Shown one piece after another: positions 29,870 through 61,315 of a stretch of 64,000 nucleotides of DNA; within the stretch, counting starts at the first letter, position 1, and every line of letters begins with the position of its first letter. The notes under the pieces are model-generated. The model did no database searches, was not told where the DNA came from, and saw only the letters and a list, made by a program, of their open reading frames with translations. A program made the position numbers and the translations under genes. Source of the stretch: an uncultured Bifidobacteriaceae bacterium (GTDB lineage: Bacteria > Verrucomicrobiota > Verrucomicrobiia > Limisphaerales > UBA11358); assembly GCA_964536285.1 (NCBI GenBank), contig CAZHXG010000004.1:11121-75120 (forward strand). The letters run 5' to 3'.

Positions 29870-30646
29870 TTAGTTCGCAGCCACAGGCACGGCGATGGTC
29901 ATGTTGTTGATCACGCTGGTCACGCCGTTGATGTCGGTCGCGAGCTTGGTGACGAGGCTTTTTTCAGCGTCGTTTTTGGCAATGCCGCTCAAGGTGACGA
30001 CGCCGTCCGTCGTTGAAACCGTGGTGTGCAAGGCGCTGGTCGAACGATGCGACAGCAACGACGACTTGACTTCAGCCGTGATGGAGGCGTCGTCAATTTT
30101 GTCGCCAATGGTTGCGTCTGGAGTTGCCGGAGTATTGGCAATCGTCATGTCGTTCTTGACCTCGTTGACGTTGTCAATGTCCCTGGCGTATTCGGTGGTG
30201 AGTTCCTTCTGCGCCATGCTGCTTGCTTCACCCTGCAAGGTGACGATGCCGTCTTTCACATACACGGTGGTTCCGGTGGCGCTCACGTTACGATGGAACA
30301 ACAGCGCGGTTTGCACTTTCATTTTGATCCACATGTCGGAATGTTCAGCCGGCTGTTTGCCGTTGATCAGTAGTTCATTGTCCACGGTTACGACGCCGGG
30401 CAGACTCGCCACGGTGTTTTCGGCCATGGATCTGTGCGACGCATCGGCGACCGTGCCGGTCAAAGTGACGACGCCATTTTTGGAATCAACCTTGATTGAA
30501 TCGTCCTTGAGGTAGTTTTTGAATGTATAGGAGTGTGCGGCGGACGATTCGATGCGGCTGTCCGTGCTGGCAGCGCGCACTGGCGAACTGGTGATTAATA
30601 TTGTGCTCACAACCGCTGCGAGCGTTAAGGGGAACATTGATTTCAT
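29870..30646 (-). CDS. Periplasmic BON-domain protein (OsmY-like, three BON domains)
   Basis: Signal peptide MKSMFPLTLAAVVSTILITSSPVRA, then three repeats of the type GVVTLTG.A....K..A......GV..V.N. Confidence 0.85.
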   Translation of the reverse strand: MKSMFPLTLAAVVSTILITSSPVRAASTDSRIESSAAHSYTFKNYLKDDSIKVDSKNGVVTLTGTVADASHRSMAENTVASLPGVVTVDNELLINGKQPAEHSDMWIKMKVQTALLFHRNVSATGTTVYVKDGIVTLQGEASSMAQKELTTEYARDIDNVNEVKNDMTIANTPATPDATIGDKIDDASITAEVKSSLLSHRSTSALHTTVSTTDGVVTLSGIAKNDAEKSLVTKLATDINGVTSVINNMTIAVPVAAN

Positions 30647-30717
30647 TTTATTTCTTTCGTTTGTTATGTTGTTGGTTTTTGACACTTGAAGCACGTTAAG
30701 TGATGCGCCAACTCCTG

Positions 30718-30738
30718 GCTATGGGGTGTAACCCTACC
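30718..30738 (-). promoter_or_regulatory. Conserved stress box (copy facing the BON operon)
   Basis: The minus strand reads GGTAGGGTTACACCCCATAGC. It lies 80 nt upstream of the BON start. Confidence 0.6.
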
Positions 30739-30800
30739 GTGAATTGCTGGAGGCGTTCTCGCGGTAAACTGTTTCAGCCCGTCTGGAGACAATCGGCGAG

Positions 30801-30820
30801 TCGGGTTTTACCCCATATAC
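30801..30820 (+). promoter_or_regulatory. Degenerate stress box (copy facing the two-component operon)
   Basis: TCGGGTTTTACCCCATATAC keeps the GGGT-N3-ACCCCAT core. It lies 70 nt upstream of the ATG at 30881. Confidence 0.4.
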
Positions 30821-30880
30821 AAGTCCAGGCACCCGACAGATACTGACTGCGAACTGGTAACAGGTGAATTCGTCATAACC

Positions 30881-31579
30881 ATGAAACGAAAGTTGATCAA
30901 GTTGTCACAACGATACGTGACAGCGTTGCGAAAACACCTGAAGCCGGGATTACGCCGGAGCTTGCAGCCGGCGCTGGGACTGGGACGCCAGGCTGTCGTG
31001 CTCGGGCTCGAGACGCTGGAACTGGCCCGAATTCACGAGAAGGCGATCACCACACTGGAATTATCCAAAAGTAAAAACGGCTTTACCAGGCAGGCGGAGA
31101 TTTTTTTTACCGAGGCCATCACCCCGATCGTGGAGACGCATCGCGCCGCGCGGCAGAGCAAGATTCAACTGGACCGGCTGAACGAGACGCTGAACCGGCG
31201 AACGGTGGAACTGGCCGCCACGAACCGTCAGTTGCGACACGGCATCGTCCGCCGCAAGTGCGTGGAAGCCGCCCTCAAGAAAAGCGGCGAACACTACACC
31301 AGATTGTTGAAGGATTCCCTGCAACTGCAGGAAGGCTTGCGGCAACTGACGCATCAGGTGCTGGCGGCGCAGGAGGATGAACGCAAGAAGATCAGCGGCG
31401 AACTTCAGGACGAAATCGCCCAGACGTTGCTGGGCATCAATGTCCGCCTGCTCTCGTTGAAACAGGAGGCACGGAACAACACCAAGGGTCTGAAGAATGA
31501 AATCGCCAGCACACAGCGGTTGGTGGTAAAATCGGCCAAGTCCGTGCGGCGGGTCGCCCGTGAATTCGGCAGCTCATGA
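30881..31579 (+). CDS. Truncated histidine-kinase paralog: RsbU_N-like helical domain, coiled coil and first DHp helix, with phospho-acceptor His replaced by Gln and no ATPase domain
   Basis: 232 aa, colinear with residues 1-230 of the next gene. The H-box reads ISGELQDEIAQTL versus ISRELHDVIAQTL in the neighbour. The stop overlaps the next start (ATGA). Confidence 0.8.
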   Translation: MKRKLIKLSQRYVTALRKHLKPGLRRSLQPALGLGRQAVVLGLETLELARIHEKAITTLELSKSKNGFTRQAEIFFTEAITPIVETHRAARQSKIQLDRLNETLNRRTVELAATNRQLRHGIVRRKCVEAALKKSGEHYTRLLKDSLQLQEGLRQLTHQVLAAQEDERKKISGELQDEIAQTLLGINVRLLSLKQEARNNTKGLKNEIASTQRLVVKSAKSVRRVAREFGSS

Positions 31580-32742
31580 AAGCCAAATTTTTTAGACACT
31601 ATCAGTCGGCATTGCTGAAGTATCTCAAGCAATGCCCCGGCGGACGCCTGCAATCGGCGCACGGCATGGGACGGCAGGCGCTGGCCGCCGGCCTGCAGAC
31701 GCTCGACGTGGCCAAGCTCCACGAGCAGATATTGATCACCCAGGTGTTGCCGGGCCTCCCGGCCGGCAAACGCGCCACGCTCATCAAGCAGGCGGGTGCT
31801 TTCTTCACCGAGGCGATCACCCCGATCGAGAAAATTCATCGCGGCGCGCACGAGGCCGCTGTCCACCTGAACCAGATCGTCGAGATGTTGAGCCAGCGCA
31901 CAGTGGATCTGGCCGCCTCGAACCTGGAATTGGAACAGGAAATCACCCAGCGCAAGGCGGTGGAGGTGGCGCTCAAAAAAAGCGAGCACCATTACAGCCA
32001 GTTGCTGGAACAATCGGATCACCTGCAGGAGCAGTTGCGCCAATTGTCCCGCCAGATCCTCTCGACACAGGAGGAGGAGCGCCGGGAGATCAGCCGCGAA
32101 CTGCATGATGTCATCGCCCAGACTTTGACGGGCATCAACGTCCGGCTCGCGGCCTTGAAAAAGGAGGCCGCGCTCAACACCAAGGGTCTCGACCGCAACA
32201 TCGCCCGCACGCAACGGCTGGTGGAAAAATCGGTGAACATCGTGCATCAGTTCGCCCGCGAATTGCGCCCGGCAGTGCTGGACGATCTCGGCCTGATCCC
32301 CGCGCTGCATGCGTTCGTCAAAAATTTTTCCAAGCGGACGGGCGTCCACGTTCACATGAAGGTCTTTGCGGGGGTTGAACAACTGGACAACAGCAAACGC
32401 ACGGTGCTCTATCGCGTCGCGCAGGAGGCGCTGACCAATGTCGCACGCCATGCAAAAGCCGGACGGGTGGAAGTGAACATTCAGAAGCTTCACGGTGCCG
32501 CCCGCATGGAAGTCAAAGACGACGGCAAATCCTTTCAAGTGGAGCGCGTCATCCATTCCAAGGAAAATAAACGATTGGGACTGCTCGGCATGAGGGAGCG
32601 CGTCGAAATGGTCGGCGGCACTTTTTGCGTCGAGTCCGCGCCCGGCCGCGGCACCACCATCCGGGTGGAGATTCCATTCAAACACGTCCCGAAGGACGCG
32701 CTGAAAAAATCCGGTAAAAAAACCACACTAGAATGTCCATGA
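31576..32742 (+). CDS. Cytoplasmic sensor histidine kinase (RsbU_N-like N-terminus, HisKA_3, HATPase_c)
   Basis: H-box ELHDVIAQTLTGI, N-box QEALTNVARHA, G-boxes DDGKSF and GLLGMRERVEMVGG. No TM segment. Confidence 0.9.
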   Translation: MKAKFFRHYQSALLKYLKQCPGGRLQSAHGMGRQALAAGLQTLDVAKLHEQILITQVLPGLPAGKRATLIKQAGAFFTEAITPIEKIHRGAHEAAVHLNQIVEMLSQRTVDLAASNLELEQEITQRKAVEVALKKSEHHYSQLLEQSDHLQEQLRQLSRQILSTQEEERREISRELHDVIAQTLTGINVRLAALKKEAALNTKGLDRNIARTQRLVEKSVNIVHQFARELRPAVLDDLGLIPALHAFVKNFSKRTGVHVHMKVFAGVEQLDNSKRTVLYRVAQEALTNVARHAKAGRVEVNIQKLHGAARMEVKDDGKSFQVERVIHSKENKRLGLLGMRERVEMVGGTFCVESAPGRGTTIRVEIPFKHVPKDALKKSGKKTTLECP

Positions 32743-33416
32743 AACGAATCACTGTCCTGTTGGCCGAAGACCACACCATCGTGCGCGAGGGGTTCCGCAA
32801 GATGCTCGAACTTGAAGACGACTTTGAAGTCGTCGGCGAAGCGCCGGACGGGCGGCAGGCCGTCACGCTGGCCAAAAAACTCCGTCCCGACGTGATGTTG
32901 ATGGACATCGCGATGCCCCTGCTCAACGGCCTGGAAGCCACCCGCCAGATTCTCAAGGCCGTCCCCGGCACCAAAATAGTCATCCTCTCCGCGCACAATG
33001 ACGATGCGTATGTCAAAAATGCGAGCGAGTCCGGCGCGATGGGATTTCTGCTCAAACAAAACTCCTCCCACGTGGTGTGCGAGGCCATCCGGCAGGTGCA
33101 AAAGGGGAAAGCGTTTTACGGCCCGACGGTCGCCAGGCGTCTCGAACGCATCAATTCCAAATCGTCCAACGGCTCGAAACCAAACGGCAAGAAAATTTCC
33201 AAACTGACTTCGCGCGAGATGGAAGTGCTCCAGCTCATCGCCGAGGGCAAGGCCAACAAGGAGACCGCGTCGGAACTGGGCATCGGCATCAAGACCGTCG
33301 AGAAGCATCGCGAGCATCTCATGGAGAAGCTCGACATCCACGACACCGCCGGACTCACCCGCTACGCCATCAGCGCGGGCATCATCGAGAGCAGCGTCCA
33401 GTTGACCATCGTTTAG
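32733..33416 (+). CDS. NarL/LuxR-family response regulator (REC plus GerE-type HTH)
   Basis: ITVLLAEDHTIVREG...DVMLMDIAMP, and a C-terminal LTSREMEVLQLIAEGKANKETASELGIGIKTVEKHREHLM. Confidence 0.93.
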   Translation: MSMKRITVLLAEDHTIVREGFRKMLELEDDFEVVGEAPDGRQAVTLAKKLRPDVMLMDIAMPLLNGLEATRQILKAVPGTKIVILSAHNDDAYVKNASESGAMGFLLKQNSSHVVCEAIRQVQKGKAFYGPTVARRLERINSKSSNGSKPNGKKISKLTSREMEVLQLIAEGKANKETASELGIGIKTVEKHREHLMEKLDIHDTAGLTRYAISAGIIESSVQLTIV

Positions 33417-33444: not shown

Positions 33445-33750
33445 ATGTTCTTGGTCCGCCGCATGATCGTTATGAATGAAAATGGCCTCGCTTTCTGGAT
33501 GACCCTGACCGGCACCATTTGCTGGGCTGTTTGCTTTTGGTGGATGCACCGGCTGTCAACCAAGCAGAACGCGCTTTTGGACCAGCTTCGCGAACAGGGC
33601 AAACGCATCGAAAAACTTTCCAAGATCGAACACGACCTCATCAAGGAAGTGCATCCGCAGGTCGGCGAGATCAAGGAAGGGATGGACGAGATGATCGCGG
33701 CGGTGAAGGAAAATTCCAATCCCCCGGCATCCAAAAAGAAGGGGCATTAG
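33445..33750 (+). CDS. Small membrane-anchored coiled-coil protein, hypothetical
   Basis: One hydrophobic helix (AFWMTLTGTICWAVCFWWM) followed by a charged helical tail. The start codon is uncertain. Confidence 0.45.
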   Translation: MFLVRRMIVMNENGLAFWMTLTGTICWAVCFWWMHRLSTKQNALLDQLREQGKRIEKLSKIEHDLIKEVHPQVGEIKEGMDEMIAAVKENSNPPASKKKGH

Positions 33751-34028: not shown

Positions 34029-34350
34029 CGGCGCGTCACCATCATCAGGCGGCGCGCCGTAATCATTTTTACACGCGGAAACTTCATCCGCACGCGTGTC
34101 GCAACCATTTTTACGCGCGTAAACTTCGTCCGCACGCGCGTGGCGATGATTCTTACGCAAGGAATAATCATTCCCACGCGAGTAAACTTCATTCCCACGT
34201 GCGTGGAAATCATTCCTACGCACGTAAACTTCATCGGTGCGCGCGTAAAAATCATTCCTACGCACGTAAACTTCATCGGTGCGCGCGTGGAAATCATTTT
34301 TACTCACGTAAAAACCGTTCCCACGCACGTAAAAATCATTTTTACGCACC
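34029..34350. repeat. Tandem array of about 15 units of a 21-bp repeat with a 42-bp higher-order structure
   Basis: Units start at 34050, 34071, 34092 and so on to 34344, exactly 21 bp apart. Two alternating types: ACGCACGTAAACTTCATCGGT and GCGCGCGTGGAAATCATTCCT. The stretch CCTACGCACGTAAACTTCATCGGTGCGCGCGT is repeated exactly at a 42-bp offset. Confidence 0.9.
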
Positions 34351-36617: not shown

Positions 36618-36640
36618 AATGGGTAAAACACCCCATAGCG
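36618..36640 (+). promoter_or_regulatory. Conserved stress box (variant) heading the signalling operon
   Basis: AATGGGTAAAACACCCCATAGCG. The ATG at 36671 lies 40 nt after the first C of CCCCAT. Confidence 0.5.
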
Positions 36641-50913: not shown

Positions 50914-51329
50914 CCGGCAAAAAAATTCTCATCATCGAGGACAACTTATTAAACCTCGAACTCGCCACCGATTTGTTGGAGGCGAACGGCTTTGTCGTTT
51001 CTTCGGCGCAGACGGCGGAAGAAGGTTTGAGGATGGCGCGAGAACTTTTGCCGGATTTGGTGCTGATGGATTTCAGCCTGCCCGGCATGGATGGTTTGTC
51101 CGCCACCAAAAATCTCAAAGCCGATTCCACGACGCGCTATCTGGCTGTCGTCGGCCTCACGGCCAACGCCATGAAAGGCGACGAGGAACTCGCGCTGAAC
51201 GCCGGTTGCGACGGCTACCTGACCAAGCCGATTGACACACGGACATTCATCGCCGCCGTAAATCAATTCATCACGGCGGCAAAATTGTGCCAAACAGAAA
51301 ATCAACCCGTTGAAAATTATGCAAAGTGA
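50910..51329 (+). CDS. Single-domain CheY-like response regulator
   Basis: ILIIEDNLLNLEL...LVLMDFSLPGMDG...GLTANAMKGD...YLTKPI. Confidence 0.9.
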   Translation: MTGKKILIIEDNLLNLELATDLLEANGFVVSSAQTAEEGLRMARELLPDLVLMDFSLPGMDGLSATKNLKADSTTRYLAVVGLTANAMKGDEELALNAGCDGYLTKPIDTRTFIAAVNQFITAAKLCQTENQPVENYAK

Positions 51330-52395
51330 AATCAAAAACATCAAACCCATGAGCACCGTGCCCGCGCCTTCGCTCGGCTACGTGCTGGTCGTGGACGATG
51401 AAGAACAAAACCGCAGTTTGTTGCGCGATCCGCTGGAAGCGCGCGGCTATGAAATCGCCGAGGCCGAAAATGGCATGGTTGCGCTGGAGAAAATCGCCGC
51501 GCGCCTGCCCGATGTCATTTTGCTGGACGTGATGATGCCGCAAATGGACGGCTTTGAAGTTTGTCGCCGGTTGAAGACCGATTCCAAAACGGCGCACATT
51601 CCCATTTTGATGGTGACCGCGCTGTCCGAACGCAAGGAGCGGCTGATGGGCATCGCCGTCGGGGCGAACGATTTTTTGAACAAGCCGGTGGATATCCAGG
51701 ACGTGACCTTGCGCGTCGGCAACGCCGTCTATACCAAACATCTTCGCGACCAGTTGCAAGTAGAGCAGGAAAAGTCCGAGCAATTACTGCTGAACATTCT
51801 GCCCAAGCCTGTCGCGGAACGAATGAAAAAAGGCGAGACGAACATCGCCGACAGTTATCCCGATGTCACGGTGCTGCTCGCGGATTTGGTCGGCTTCACG
51901 ACGTTGTCCGCGCATATCGGGCCGGAGCAAATTGTGCAATTGTTGAACGAAATTTTTTCCGCGTTCGATCTGCTGGCGGAAAAACACGGCCTGGAAAAAA
52001 TCAAAACCATCGGCGACGCCTACATGGTGGCCGGCGGCATTTCTTTTCCACGGCCGGACCATGCCGAAGCCTGCGCCGAACTCGCGCTCAACTTGCAGGC
52101 CGAAATTGTGCGACTCAACCACGAGTATGACACGTCCGTCCGATTGCGCATTGGTATCTGCACTGGCTCGGTCATCGCTGGTGTCATTGGACGCAAAAGA
52201 TTCGCCTACGATCTTTGGGGTGAAACCGTCAACCTCGCCTGCCGTTTGGAATCAACGGGCGAAACGGGAAAAATTCAAATCGCCGAATCCACCTACGAAC
52301 GGTTGAAACATCAATATCAGTTTGAACCGAAACATAGAATTGACGTCAAGGGACACGGCGACCTGTCTGCCTACTGGCTCGATAGGCGGACATAA
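51310..52395 (+). CDS. Receiver-coupled class III adenylate/guanylate cyclase
   Basis: N-terminal REC (VLVVDDEEQNRSLL...ILLDVMMPQMDG). C-terminal cyclase motifs VTVLLADLVGFT, KTIGDAYMVAGG, RIGICTGSVIAGVIG and DLWGETVNLACRLES. Confidence 0.92.
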   Translation: MKIMQSEIKNIKPMSTVPAPSLGYVLVVDDEEQNRSLLRDPLEARGYEIAEAENGMVALEKIAARLPDVILLDVMMPQMDGFEVCRRLKTDSKTAHIPILMVTALSERKERLMGIAVGANDFLNKPVDIQDVTLRVGNAVYTKHLRDQLQVEQEKSEQLLLNILPKPVAERMKKGETNIADSYPDVTVLLADLVGFTTLSAHIGPEQIVQLLNEIFSAFDLLAEKHGLEKIKTIGDAYMVAGGISFPRPDHAEACAELALNLQAEIVRLNHEYDTSVRLRIGICTGSVIAGVIGRKRFAYDLWGETVNLACRLESTGETGKIQIAESTYERLKHQYQFEPKHRIDVKGHGDLSAYWLDRRT

Positions 52396-52471: not shown

Positions 52472-52492
52472 GGTAGGGTAACACCCCATAGC
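52472..52492 (+). promoter_or_regulatory. Conserved stress box
   Basis: GGTAGGGTAACACCCCATAGC, preceded by an AT-rich stretch ATTAAATTTC. Confidence 0.6.
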
Positions 52493-52561
52493 ACCCCTTT
52501 GGTCTCCGGCTTATGCTCGCAATATGAATAACAAAACGCTCATCCAAATTGGAGGCAATAT

Positions 52562-52759
52562 ATGTCGCTGATTTCTCTCGTCATTACTCTGATCGTCGTT
52601 GGTGTGTTGCTCTGGCTGGTCAATACCTACATTCCGATGGATGGAAAGATCAAAAAAATTCTCAACGTCGTCGTGGTGATTTGCGTCGTCGTGTGGTTGT
52701 TGTTCGCCTTCGGCATTCTCAACCATTCAAGCGAAATCCGTGTCCCACAGGTTCAGTAG
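52562..52759 (+). CDS. Small two-TM membrane protein (Thivi_2564-like family)
   Basis: MSLISLVITLIVVGVLLWLVNTYIPMDGKIKKILNVVVVICVVVWLL matches my memory of this small-protein family. A GGAGG lies 8 nt upstream. Confidence 0.6.
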   Translation: MSLISLVITLIVVGVLLWLVNTYIPMDGKIKKILNVVVVICVVVWLLFAFGILNHSSEIRVPQVQ

Positions 52760-54185: not shown

Positions 54186-54206
54186 GGTAGGGTTACACCC
54201 CATAGC
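54186..54206 (+). promoter_or_regulatory. Conserved stress box
   Basis: GGTAGGGTTACACCCCATAGC. The ATG at 54237 lies 39 nt after the first C of CCCCAT. Confidence 0.6.
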
Positions 54207-55718: not shown

Positions 55719-55740
55719 TATAGGGTGAACACCCCATAGC
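55719..55740 (+). promoter_or_regulatory. Conserved stress box (variant with a 1-nt longer spacer)
   Basis: TATAGGGTGAACACCCCATAGC. The ATG at 55773 lies 41 nt after the first C of CCCCAT. Confidence 0.55.
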
Positions 55741-57349: not shown

Positions 57350-57370
57350 GGTAGGGTTACACCCCATGGG
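57350..57370 (+). promoter_or_regulatory. Conserved stress box
   Basis: GGTAGGGTTACACCCCATGGG. It lies 78 nt upstream of the ATG at 57440. Confidence 0.55.
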
Positions 57371-61294: not shown

Positions 61295-61315
61295 GGTAGG
61301 GTTACACCCCATGGC
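61295..61315 (+). promoter_or_regulatory. Conserved stress box
   Basis: GGTAGGGTTACACCCCATGGC, preceded by TTTATAAATATTT. The ATG at 61348 lies 41 nt after the first C of CCCCAT. Confidence 0.6.

Follow-up and report, generated by a model that had tools for sequence, protein, structure and literature searches.

The stretch of DNA analysed here (the window, 64,000 nucleotides (nt) long) belongs to a 2.38 Mb genome in 98 contigs, a metagenome-assembled genome (MAG) from a Limisphaerales (Verrucomicrobiota) lineage of peat, soil and groundwater, and our subject is a short DNA motif, the box, that recurs in this genome and its relatives, together with the response regulator that probably binds it. 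Two copies of the box lie in a 186-nt spacer between divergent genes. On the minus-strand side of the spacer is the gene for a secreted, OsmY-like stress protein with a BON domain (29870-30646; three Pfam BON stretches, E 1.4e-46; signal peptide read from the translation), and on the plus-strand side is a three-gene two-component operon. The first operon gene (30881-31579) encodes a kinase paralog with an RsbU_N-like domain, a coiled coil and the first DHp helix (HisKA_3) and without an ATPase domain, the second (31576-32742) a histidine kinase (HisKA_3 and HATPase_c) whose N-terminal domain is likewise RsbU_N-like, and the third (32733-33416) a response regulator of the NarL/FixJ family, with a receiver and a GerE helix-turn-helix. 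The regulator gene is followed, here and co-linearly in many related loci, by a gene for a conserved 101-residue protein (33445-33750, plus strand) that has no Pfam match.

An earlier note on this DNA described one canonical box in the spacer facing left and one degenerate copy facing right, and both are present. The left-facing copy, at 30719-30738 on the minus strand, is an exact match to the canonical asymmetric form (the A-form), GGTAGGGTTACACCCCATAG, and points at the BON gene, whose likely start is the ATG at 30646; an alternative GTG at 30694 falls within the predicted -10 element of the BON promoter. The right-facing copy occupies 30801-30820 on the plus strand and faces the two-component operon. 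It is weakened, with two mismatches in its 14-nt core (GGGTTTTACCCCAT, 30803-30816) and five positions off the 20-nt consensus, and its CCCCATATAC tail is typical of operon copies. The other six copies that the note had named in the window are also real. Full boxes with at most one mismatch occur five times in the window against none expected from shuffled sequences, and genome-wide the A-form turns up seven times at the same tolerance, three times without any mismatch, among about 27 box sites in all. Two forms are seen among 311 unique copies, which were oriented and gathered from related loci as well as from this genome: the asymmetric GGTAGGGTTACACCCCATAG and a perfect 18-bp palindrome, ATGGGGT-GAAC-ACCCCAT, with a 7-4-7 architecture. 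The spacing is that of the palindrome in 159 copies and of the compressed asymmetric form in 127, and the latter resembles the palindrome minus one spacer base, with TGGGGT changed to TAGGGT. The gene-proximal half-site, CACCCCAT, is near-invariant in both forms, and conservation is confined to the approximately 20 nt of the box while the flanks drift.

The boxes stand at a fixed distance from a -10-like element. A hexamer of the form [T/G]AnnnT starts exactly 22 nt after the CCCCAT of the box in 167 of the 311 copies, and 23 nt after it in another 39, over a background of about five copies at every other offset. Both promoters of the spacer carry such a hexamer 22 nt after CCCCAT, TAACGT at 30693-30698 on the minus strand for the BON gene and GATACT at 30839-30844 on the plus strand for the operon, with predicted 5' leaders some 40 and 30 nt long, respectively. 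For many other downstream genes the ATG follows only 6-7 nt past the hexamer, in the window behind the boxes at 36619, 52472, 54186, 55720 and 61295, so these mRNAs are probably leaderless and their transcription start is effectively known. On this basis the box extends from about -52 to -33 and is centred at about -42 to -44. There is no TTGACA-like element at -35, and a consensus scan of the spacer found no sigma-70 -35/-10 pair. Judged from the sequence, these promoters are laid out like class II activator-dependent ones, in which the site lies over the -35 region and a recognisable -10 is present without a -35. The region 30400-31000 matches no Rfam family, which leaves a reading of the boxes as RNA elements unsupported.

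Autoregulation, which the earlier note had proposed on the grounds that the operon carries its own target site, gains considerable support from a comparison with about 450 related genomes. In a first set of 20 relatives, collected around the kinase orthologs, a box pointing into the operon lies approximately 65-130 nt before its first gene in 16-17 cases. A second set of 80 loci has a strict box about 100 nt before the operon start in 62, and in about 55 of these GATnnT follows exactly 22 nt after CCCCAT; 16 of the remaining 18 loci were inspected upstream, and nearly all have a weakened box there, for example CACCTTAT or CACCCTAT. The operon copy is a perfect palindrome in most loci and elsewhere reads GGTAGGGTTTCACCCCATATAC or, as in this window, GTCGGGTTTTACCCCATATAC. 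The same arrangement of box, paralog, kinase and regulator, with extra flanking boxes, extends into other classes of Verrucomicrobiota (L123-L132). Since orthologous operon promoters switch between the palindrome and the asymmetric form, one factor appears to read both, and since the operon bears its own box in nearly every relative, its regulator is the best candidate for that factor. The back-to-back arrangement that the earlier note had stressed holds for this spacer and is not universal: the BON gene lies upstream of the operon in 22 of the 80 loci, and of these 22 it shares the operon's strand in 14 and is divergent in eight. L126 and L128 have back-to-back pairs of the kind seen in this spacer, and in L066 and L075 the two boxes directly abut.

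These comparisons also bear on whether the spacer copies might be chance matches, or remnants of a mobile repeat, with no regulatory role, a suspicion that the five departures from consensus in the right-hand copy could raise. A core match with two mismatches is expected by chance about 0.19 times per 64 kb, or about 6e-4 times in a 186-nt spacer. In addition, a remnant or chance match would not be expected to combine conservation that stops at the edges of the box, a fixed position relative to the -10, and retention at this promoter in different classes of the phylum, and nothing in the region is recognised by Rfam. The conservation and spacing data thus already contradict such an origin, to which we attach practically no weight, and the degenerate copy is, on this comparative evidence, orthologous to the operon boxes of the relatives and not a product of chance.

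Across genomes, the boxes track the regulator. Our order-level sample comprised 61 relatives, of which 37 belong to the genus, with the present genome counted among them, and 24 represent other families of the order; 27 of the 61 are box-rich, with at least five boxes. An ortholog of the regulator, at 63% identity or more, is found in 23 of the 27 box-rich genomes and in six of the 34 box-poor ones. Two apparent counterexamples, G001 and G031, were dropped as such, their operons being cut by contig ends, and counting them raises the first figure to 25 of 27. The odds ratio is 27-58, with p values of 1e-7 to 2e-9 that are uncorrected for phylogeny, compared with 3.5 for a control paralog, another GerE regulator encoded on the same contig, which is present even in box-free genomes of the same genus (G014, G020, G022 and G030). 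In a sample of 300 genomes from the phylum, with homologs called at E<=1e-55, a homolog of the regulator is present in 13 of the 18 genomes outside the order that have at least five boxes and in 21 of the 282 others (odds ratio 32), and several distant lineages have boxes no more than a few kb from the regulator gene. A regulator of 72% identity is accompanied by 10 boxes in single-contig genomes of the same class (G213). The suggestion of the earlier note that the NarL-type regulator is the likely box-binding factor is thus strengthened, in that the boxes follow it far more tightly than they follow the control.

The protein itself is well suited to this role. Pfam recognises Response_reg (E 3.7e-28) and GerE (E 1.4e-17), the acidic pocket (AEDH) and the Asp of LMDIAMP are visible, and the combination of a receiver with a phospho-accepting Asp and a C-terminal GerE domain is that of the NarL/FixJ family. 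Its presumed cognate HisKA_3 kinase adjoins it (HisKA_3 E 2.7e-13, HATPase_c E 5.3e-16), and the kinase gene overlaps the start of the regulator gene. At full length the closest structures in the PDB are VraR/LiaR, with DesR, NarL (1a04, E 1.6e-29) and DevR (3c3w, E 1.4e-23) also found. For the DNA-binding domain alone, the closest is EsrB (7vim, E 4e-14), followed by LiaR, EL222 and VraR; EsrB, LiaR and VraR score between 4e-14 and 1e-9, versus 1.7e-5 for NarL. Orthologs differ hardly at all in the recognition helix, KTVEKHREHLM, just as the box itself hardly varies, and the few divergent regulators (VSFKTVDKHRQHLM, in L023, L078 and L110) pair with both canonical and variant operon boxes.

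The likeness of the right half of the box to the NarL heptamer, TACYYMT, to which the earlier note had drawn attention, is weak. TACACCC matches the heptamer at five of seven positions and TACCCCA at six, but the half-sites are in the opposite order and are separated by 4 nt, so that the site reads ATGGGGT-N4-ACCCCAT and not the TACYYMT-NN-AKRRGTA of a NarL-type operator. As far as its sequence allows a class to be assigned, the box has the build of an SsrB-type operator, an 18-bp 7-4-7 site in which the proximal half is kept and the other half may be poor. A CRP-like reading, prompted by a receiver-adenylate cyclase encoded in the window, was rejected; the half-site spacing is unlike TGTGA-N6-TCACA, and cNMP-binding regulators were not searched for.

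Overall, we believe that the box probably serves as operator for the response regulator whose gene lies at 32733-33416. The regulator has the only Pfam-recognised DNA-binding domain among the open reading frames (ORFs) scanned between 30 and 64 kb, where the other annotated proteins of the island are hybrid kinases, receivers, the receiver-adenylate cyclase and stress proteins. At the same time, several observations weigh against this assignment. A number of island ORFs have no Pfam match, and could hide a DNA-binding protein that Pfam does not recognise. Any gene carried along with the island should show co-occurrence too, which does not single out the binder; likewise, a box at the operon establishes no more than the operon's membership of the regulon. 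Six genomes (G006, G140, G203, G314, G341 and G353) have genuine boxes, with the -10 at 22 nt, and no detected regulator, although we do not count them as a contradiction because all are fragmented MAGs; in G203, G341 and G353 the boxes are real and lie on short contigs with no two-component genes nearby. Conversely, about 21 box-poor genomes of the phylum sample have a regulator homolog, at 48-62% identity. Finally, the asymmetric form is strictly oriented and unusually well conserved over all 20 positions, which is more than a half-site-tolerant dimer needs, and a second contact, with polymerase or another protein, may be involved.

Most of these points could equally be accommodated if the box were bound by another protein, a dimeric factor or an unusual sigma factor, encoded elsewhere or beyond recognition by Pfam, with the operon a mere member of its regulon, and the 16 matches to the sigma-70 family in the genome leave room for such a protein. 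Nonetheless, palindromes replace the asymmetric form at orthologous promoters, as befits a dimer and not the -35 element of a sigma factor; the box reaches to about -52, and its CCCCAT stands 22 nt from the -10, outside the spacing of the sigma-70 family; no gene for a sigma factor or any other DNA-binding protein was found among the island ORFs scanned; and the control paralog shows nothing like the regulator's association with boxes. We therefore regard a different binder as unlikely, although it is the most serious competitor to the regulator. The only sigma-like candidate found near the boxes was rejected, an 87-residue ORF outside the window (contig C12, 9947-10210), directly upstream of a box-driven lipoprotein gene. 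It matches region 2 only, with 19.8 bits, below the cut-off, and is unlikely to be a working sigma factor because it is without region 4.

Two further observations concern the genome G006, in which the His-less kinase paralog described below is present in two copies (L032, that is G006:C105, and L033), each behind a palindromic box. One copy runs directly into the 101-residue protein, as if kinase and regulator had been deleted, and no regulator follows the kaiC-kaiB-kaiB-kinase cluster of the same genome (L122).

A phased tandem array of 21-bp units, approximately ATTCCTACGCACGTAAAAATC and containing TACGCACGTA, lies just after the operon at 34029-34350. As it sits 600 nt past the regulator gene, one may ask whether it is the main target of the regulator, and whether the boxes belong to another system. 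The array and the box share no sequence, however, and the array is not conserved beside the regulator: Tandem Repeats Finder (TRF) reports period-21 repeats in only a few of 30 relative loci, none of them like this unit. A further point against this reading is that the genome encodes three other GerE-type proteins (four in total). We consider it very improbable that the array, and not the box, is the principal site of the regulator.

If the regulator is indeed the binder, the following pathway can be envisaged. The kinase (31576-32742) would phosphorylate the regulator, and the His-less paralog (30881-31579) would modulate this phosphorylation, with a possible contribution from other kinases of the island. 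Phosphorylated regulator would then dimerise on the box, either the 7-4-7 palindrome or the compressed GGTAGGGTTACACCCCATAG, at a site centred near -43 that takes the place of the -35 element, and, acting as a class II activator and not as a repressor, would recruit housekeeping RNA polymerase. About 27 promoters would respond, and the BON, PRC-barrel, DUF4142 and DUF2934 proteins, small lipoproteins and others would be produced, many from leaderless mRNAs. In the spacer, the left-facing box at 30719-30738 would drive the BON gene, and the weaker right-facing one at 30803-30816 would drive the regulator's own operon, resulting in positive autoregulation.

The six remaining copies of the window, all on the plus strand, lie farther along the island. 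At 36619-36638 is a palindrome-spaced variant, ATGGGTAAAACACCCCATAG, whose -10, TAACCT, stands at 22 nt and is followed after 6 nt by an ATG. An A-form box with one mismatch (52472-52491) precedes a leaderless 15-codon ORF and a 65-residue membrane protein, and an exact one (54186-54205) precedes a leaderless lipoprotein gene, whose ATG lies 6 nt after TATTCT. The palindrome-spaced box ATAGGGTGAACACCCCATAG (55720-55739) is followed by a leaderless DUF2934 gene, and A-form boxes stand before a DUF4142 gene (57350-57369) and before a small leaderless ORF beginning MKNKTLLIKL... (61295-61314). Downstream of boxes lie genes for BON/OsmY-like, PRC-barrel, DUF4142 and DUF2934 proteins, for small lipoproteins and membrane peptides, for a rhodanese and an aldo-keto reductase, and for proteins with a PAS domain or with a receiver only. 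Genes for Dps/ferritin and Hsp20 are found in the surrounding island, and relatives add OsmC and an outer-membrane beta-barrel. By annotation, the set resembles those of general stress regulons.

Several box promoters run straight into small leaderless ORFs with related N-termini, such as MNNKTLIQIGGNICR*, MKNKTLLIKL..., MKNKTLLITF... and MNNELIQNGG... (in the window at 52526-52573 and from 61350; in the relatives L014, L017, L018, L022 and L031), and their products may act as leader peptides or as small stress peptides. Between 36863 and 52395 the window also holds a dense signalling cluster without a DNA-binding output, made up of a tandem-receiver protein, a PAS kinase, a receiver-only protein, the receiver-adenylate cyclase (51310-52395) and three hybrid kinases of 658, 2028 and 1083 residues, the last with a MASE1 domain. 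This cluster may feed the same regulator, or cyclic AMP signalling.

The input side of the system is built on two related proteins. In the kinase the H-box is intact (ELHDVIAQ), whereas in the paralog Gln replaces the phospho-accepting His (ELQDEIAQ). Some orthologs of the paralog keep the His (DLHDEIAQ in L025 and L027, ELHDEIAQ in L021), so that its loss appears to be lineage-specific; the truncation that removes the ATPase domain is universal. The paralog has 5396 metagenome relatives at E<=1e-5, and the best 120 of the 5396 are mostly 232 residues long. The earlier note had also remarked on an N-terminal likeness of both proteins to RsbU and, through it, to the partner-switching pathway of Bacillus. 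The domain itself is confirmed by a hidden Markov model search: the full proteins score 23.6 and 25.1 bits against RsbU_N (PF08673), just under the cut-off of 25.5, and the isolated 105-residue N-domain of the kinase scores 28.1 bits (E 2.4e-6), above it. The match recurs at E<=0.01 in 68 of 69 ortholog domains, and many orthologs carry a precomputed PF08673 annotation. Nothing, however, ties the domain to the Bacillus partner switch, for which RsbT and STAS proteins were not searched, and Pfam finds no PP2C phosphatase domain in either RsbU_N protein.

An AlphaFold2 model of the N-domain (mean predicted local distance difference test score (pLDDT) 85.5) gave no Foldseek match at E<=1e-3. Among the sub-significant matches, RsbU's N-terminal domain (2j6y) ranks second, fourth and fifth, with probabilities of 0.7-0.8 and template-modelling (TM) scores of about 0.5-0.6, and KaiA C-domains rank 24th and 28th. 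We rejected an identification of the domain as KaiA, as there is no Pfam KaiA match and the fold search is not significant. The RsbU_N fold has been reported to be similar to the KaiC-binding C-terminal domain of KaiA (PMC11372060), and in lineages that carry kaiC the kinase N-domain may thus dock KaiC. Such lineages exist among the relatives: in about 12 of the 80 loci (some 15%), and in 11-12 of the 61 relatives, the operon runs paralog, kinase, KaiC, KaiB, KaiB, PAS kinase (PAS/HisKA_3) and regulator. The kaiC-kaiB-kaiB loci are L014:4300-10787 (G035) and L031, L015, L045, L050, L058, L068, L099, L107, L120, L127 and L131. In the genome studied here, tblastn detected neither kaiC nor kaiB.

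A broader and more tentative possibility, which we consider somewhat less likely than not, is that the locus represents a general-stress master switch for much of the Verrucomicrobiota. In place of an alternative sigma factor, such a switch would use a two-component activator and a fixed operator at -43 to control a largely leaderless regulon, while kinases with a KaiA/RsbU_N-like docking domain, together with a His-less decoy, would integrate signals; where kaiBC is retained in the operon, the state of a KaiA-less KaiBC timer would be one of them. A literature search found no published account of the motif, of the system or of stress regulation in Verrucomicrobiota, a phylum that is abundant in soil, peat and water. 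Regardless of the breadth of the switch, the locus now offers a testable pair, a nearly invariant operator of 18-20 bp with a known promoter geometry and one candidate regulator, and the conservation of this pair reaches beyond the order Limisphaerales to other classes of the phylum. If the proposal is correct, it would become possible to read stress regulons straight off the sequence in hundreds of uncultured genomes, the known responses of the general-stress type would be joined by one that depends on a two-component activator in place of a sigma factor, and KaiA-less KaiBC systems would gain a defined transcriptional output, within the same operon in some relatives.

Among known systems, the sigma-B/RsbU pathway of Bacillus and the EcfG-PhyR pathway of Alphaproteobacteria control a similar type of regulon, and the kinases described here carry an RsbU_N-type domain. 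Unlike these sigma-run responses, however, the present promoters combine a palindromic activator site with a housekeeping-type -10, and not a sigma-specific -35/-10 pair, and, unlike in Bacillus RsbU, no PP2C phosphatase is fused to RsbU_N. The operons with kai genes recall the output systems of KaiC, SasA-RpaA of cyanobacteria and KaiA-less KaiBC timers such as that of Rhodobacter sphaeroides. SasA differs in that its docking domain is KaiB-like and its signal goes to an OmpR-type regulator. NarX-NarL of Escherichia coli shares the regulator family and the HisKA_3 class of kinase, with NarL sites of 7-2-7 architecture.

DosR/DevR of Mycobacterium tuberculosis is likewise a NarL-family regulator with HisKA_3 kinases, DosS and DosT. 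It binds a G/C-rich 20-bp palindrome of the GGGACT-WW-AGTCCC type, controls a survival and stress regulon under positive autoregulation, and has promoter-proximal sites that overlap the -35. The DosR box is spaced GGG-8 nt-CCC, compared with GGGG-6 nt-CCCC here, and DosS and DosT sense through haem-binding GAF domains. To our knowledge, the DosR system has neither a decoy paralog nor a link to Kai proteins.

A further parallel is SsrA-SsrB of Salmonella enterica, which serves the pathogenicity island SPI-2, and whose ortholog in Edwardsiella is EsrB; the recognition helix reads KTVETHR in EsrB and KTVEKHR here. SsrB binds an 18-bp 7-4-7 palindrome with the half-site mCCyTA, one good heptamer oriented toward the gene suffices while the second half may be degenerate, and weaker copies of the site are found at its own operon (PMC2837388). 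All three features, the 7-4-7 palindrome, the tolerance of a poor half and the weaker copy at the regulator's operon, have counterparts here, where the half-site is ACCCCA; that the SsrB half-sites run in the same direction toward the centre as they do here could not be confirmed from that source (PMC2837388). The two systems differ in that SsrB controls a horizontally acquired secretion island and counteracts H-NS, whereas the targets here are concerned with stress protection; in that the SsrB site is AT-rich and degenerate and the box is G/C-rich and nearly invariant; and in that the kinase here, unlike SsrA, is cytoplasmic, with an RsbU_N-like domain and a His-less paralog alongside. The underlying regulatory principle, an autoregulated NarL-family activator acting on a palindrome at a class II position, is a well-known one.

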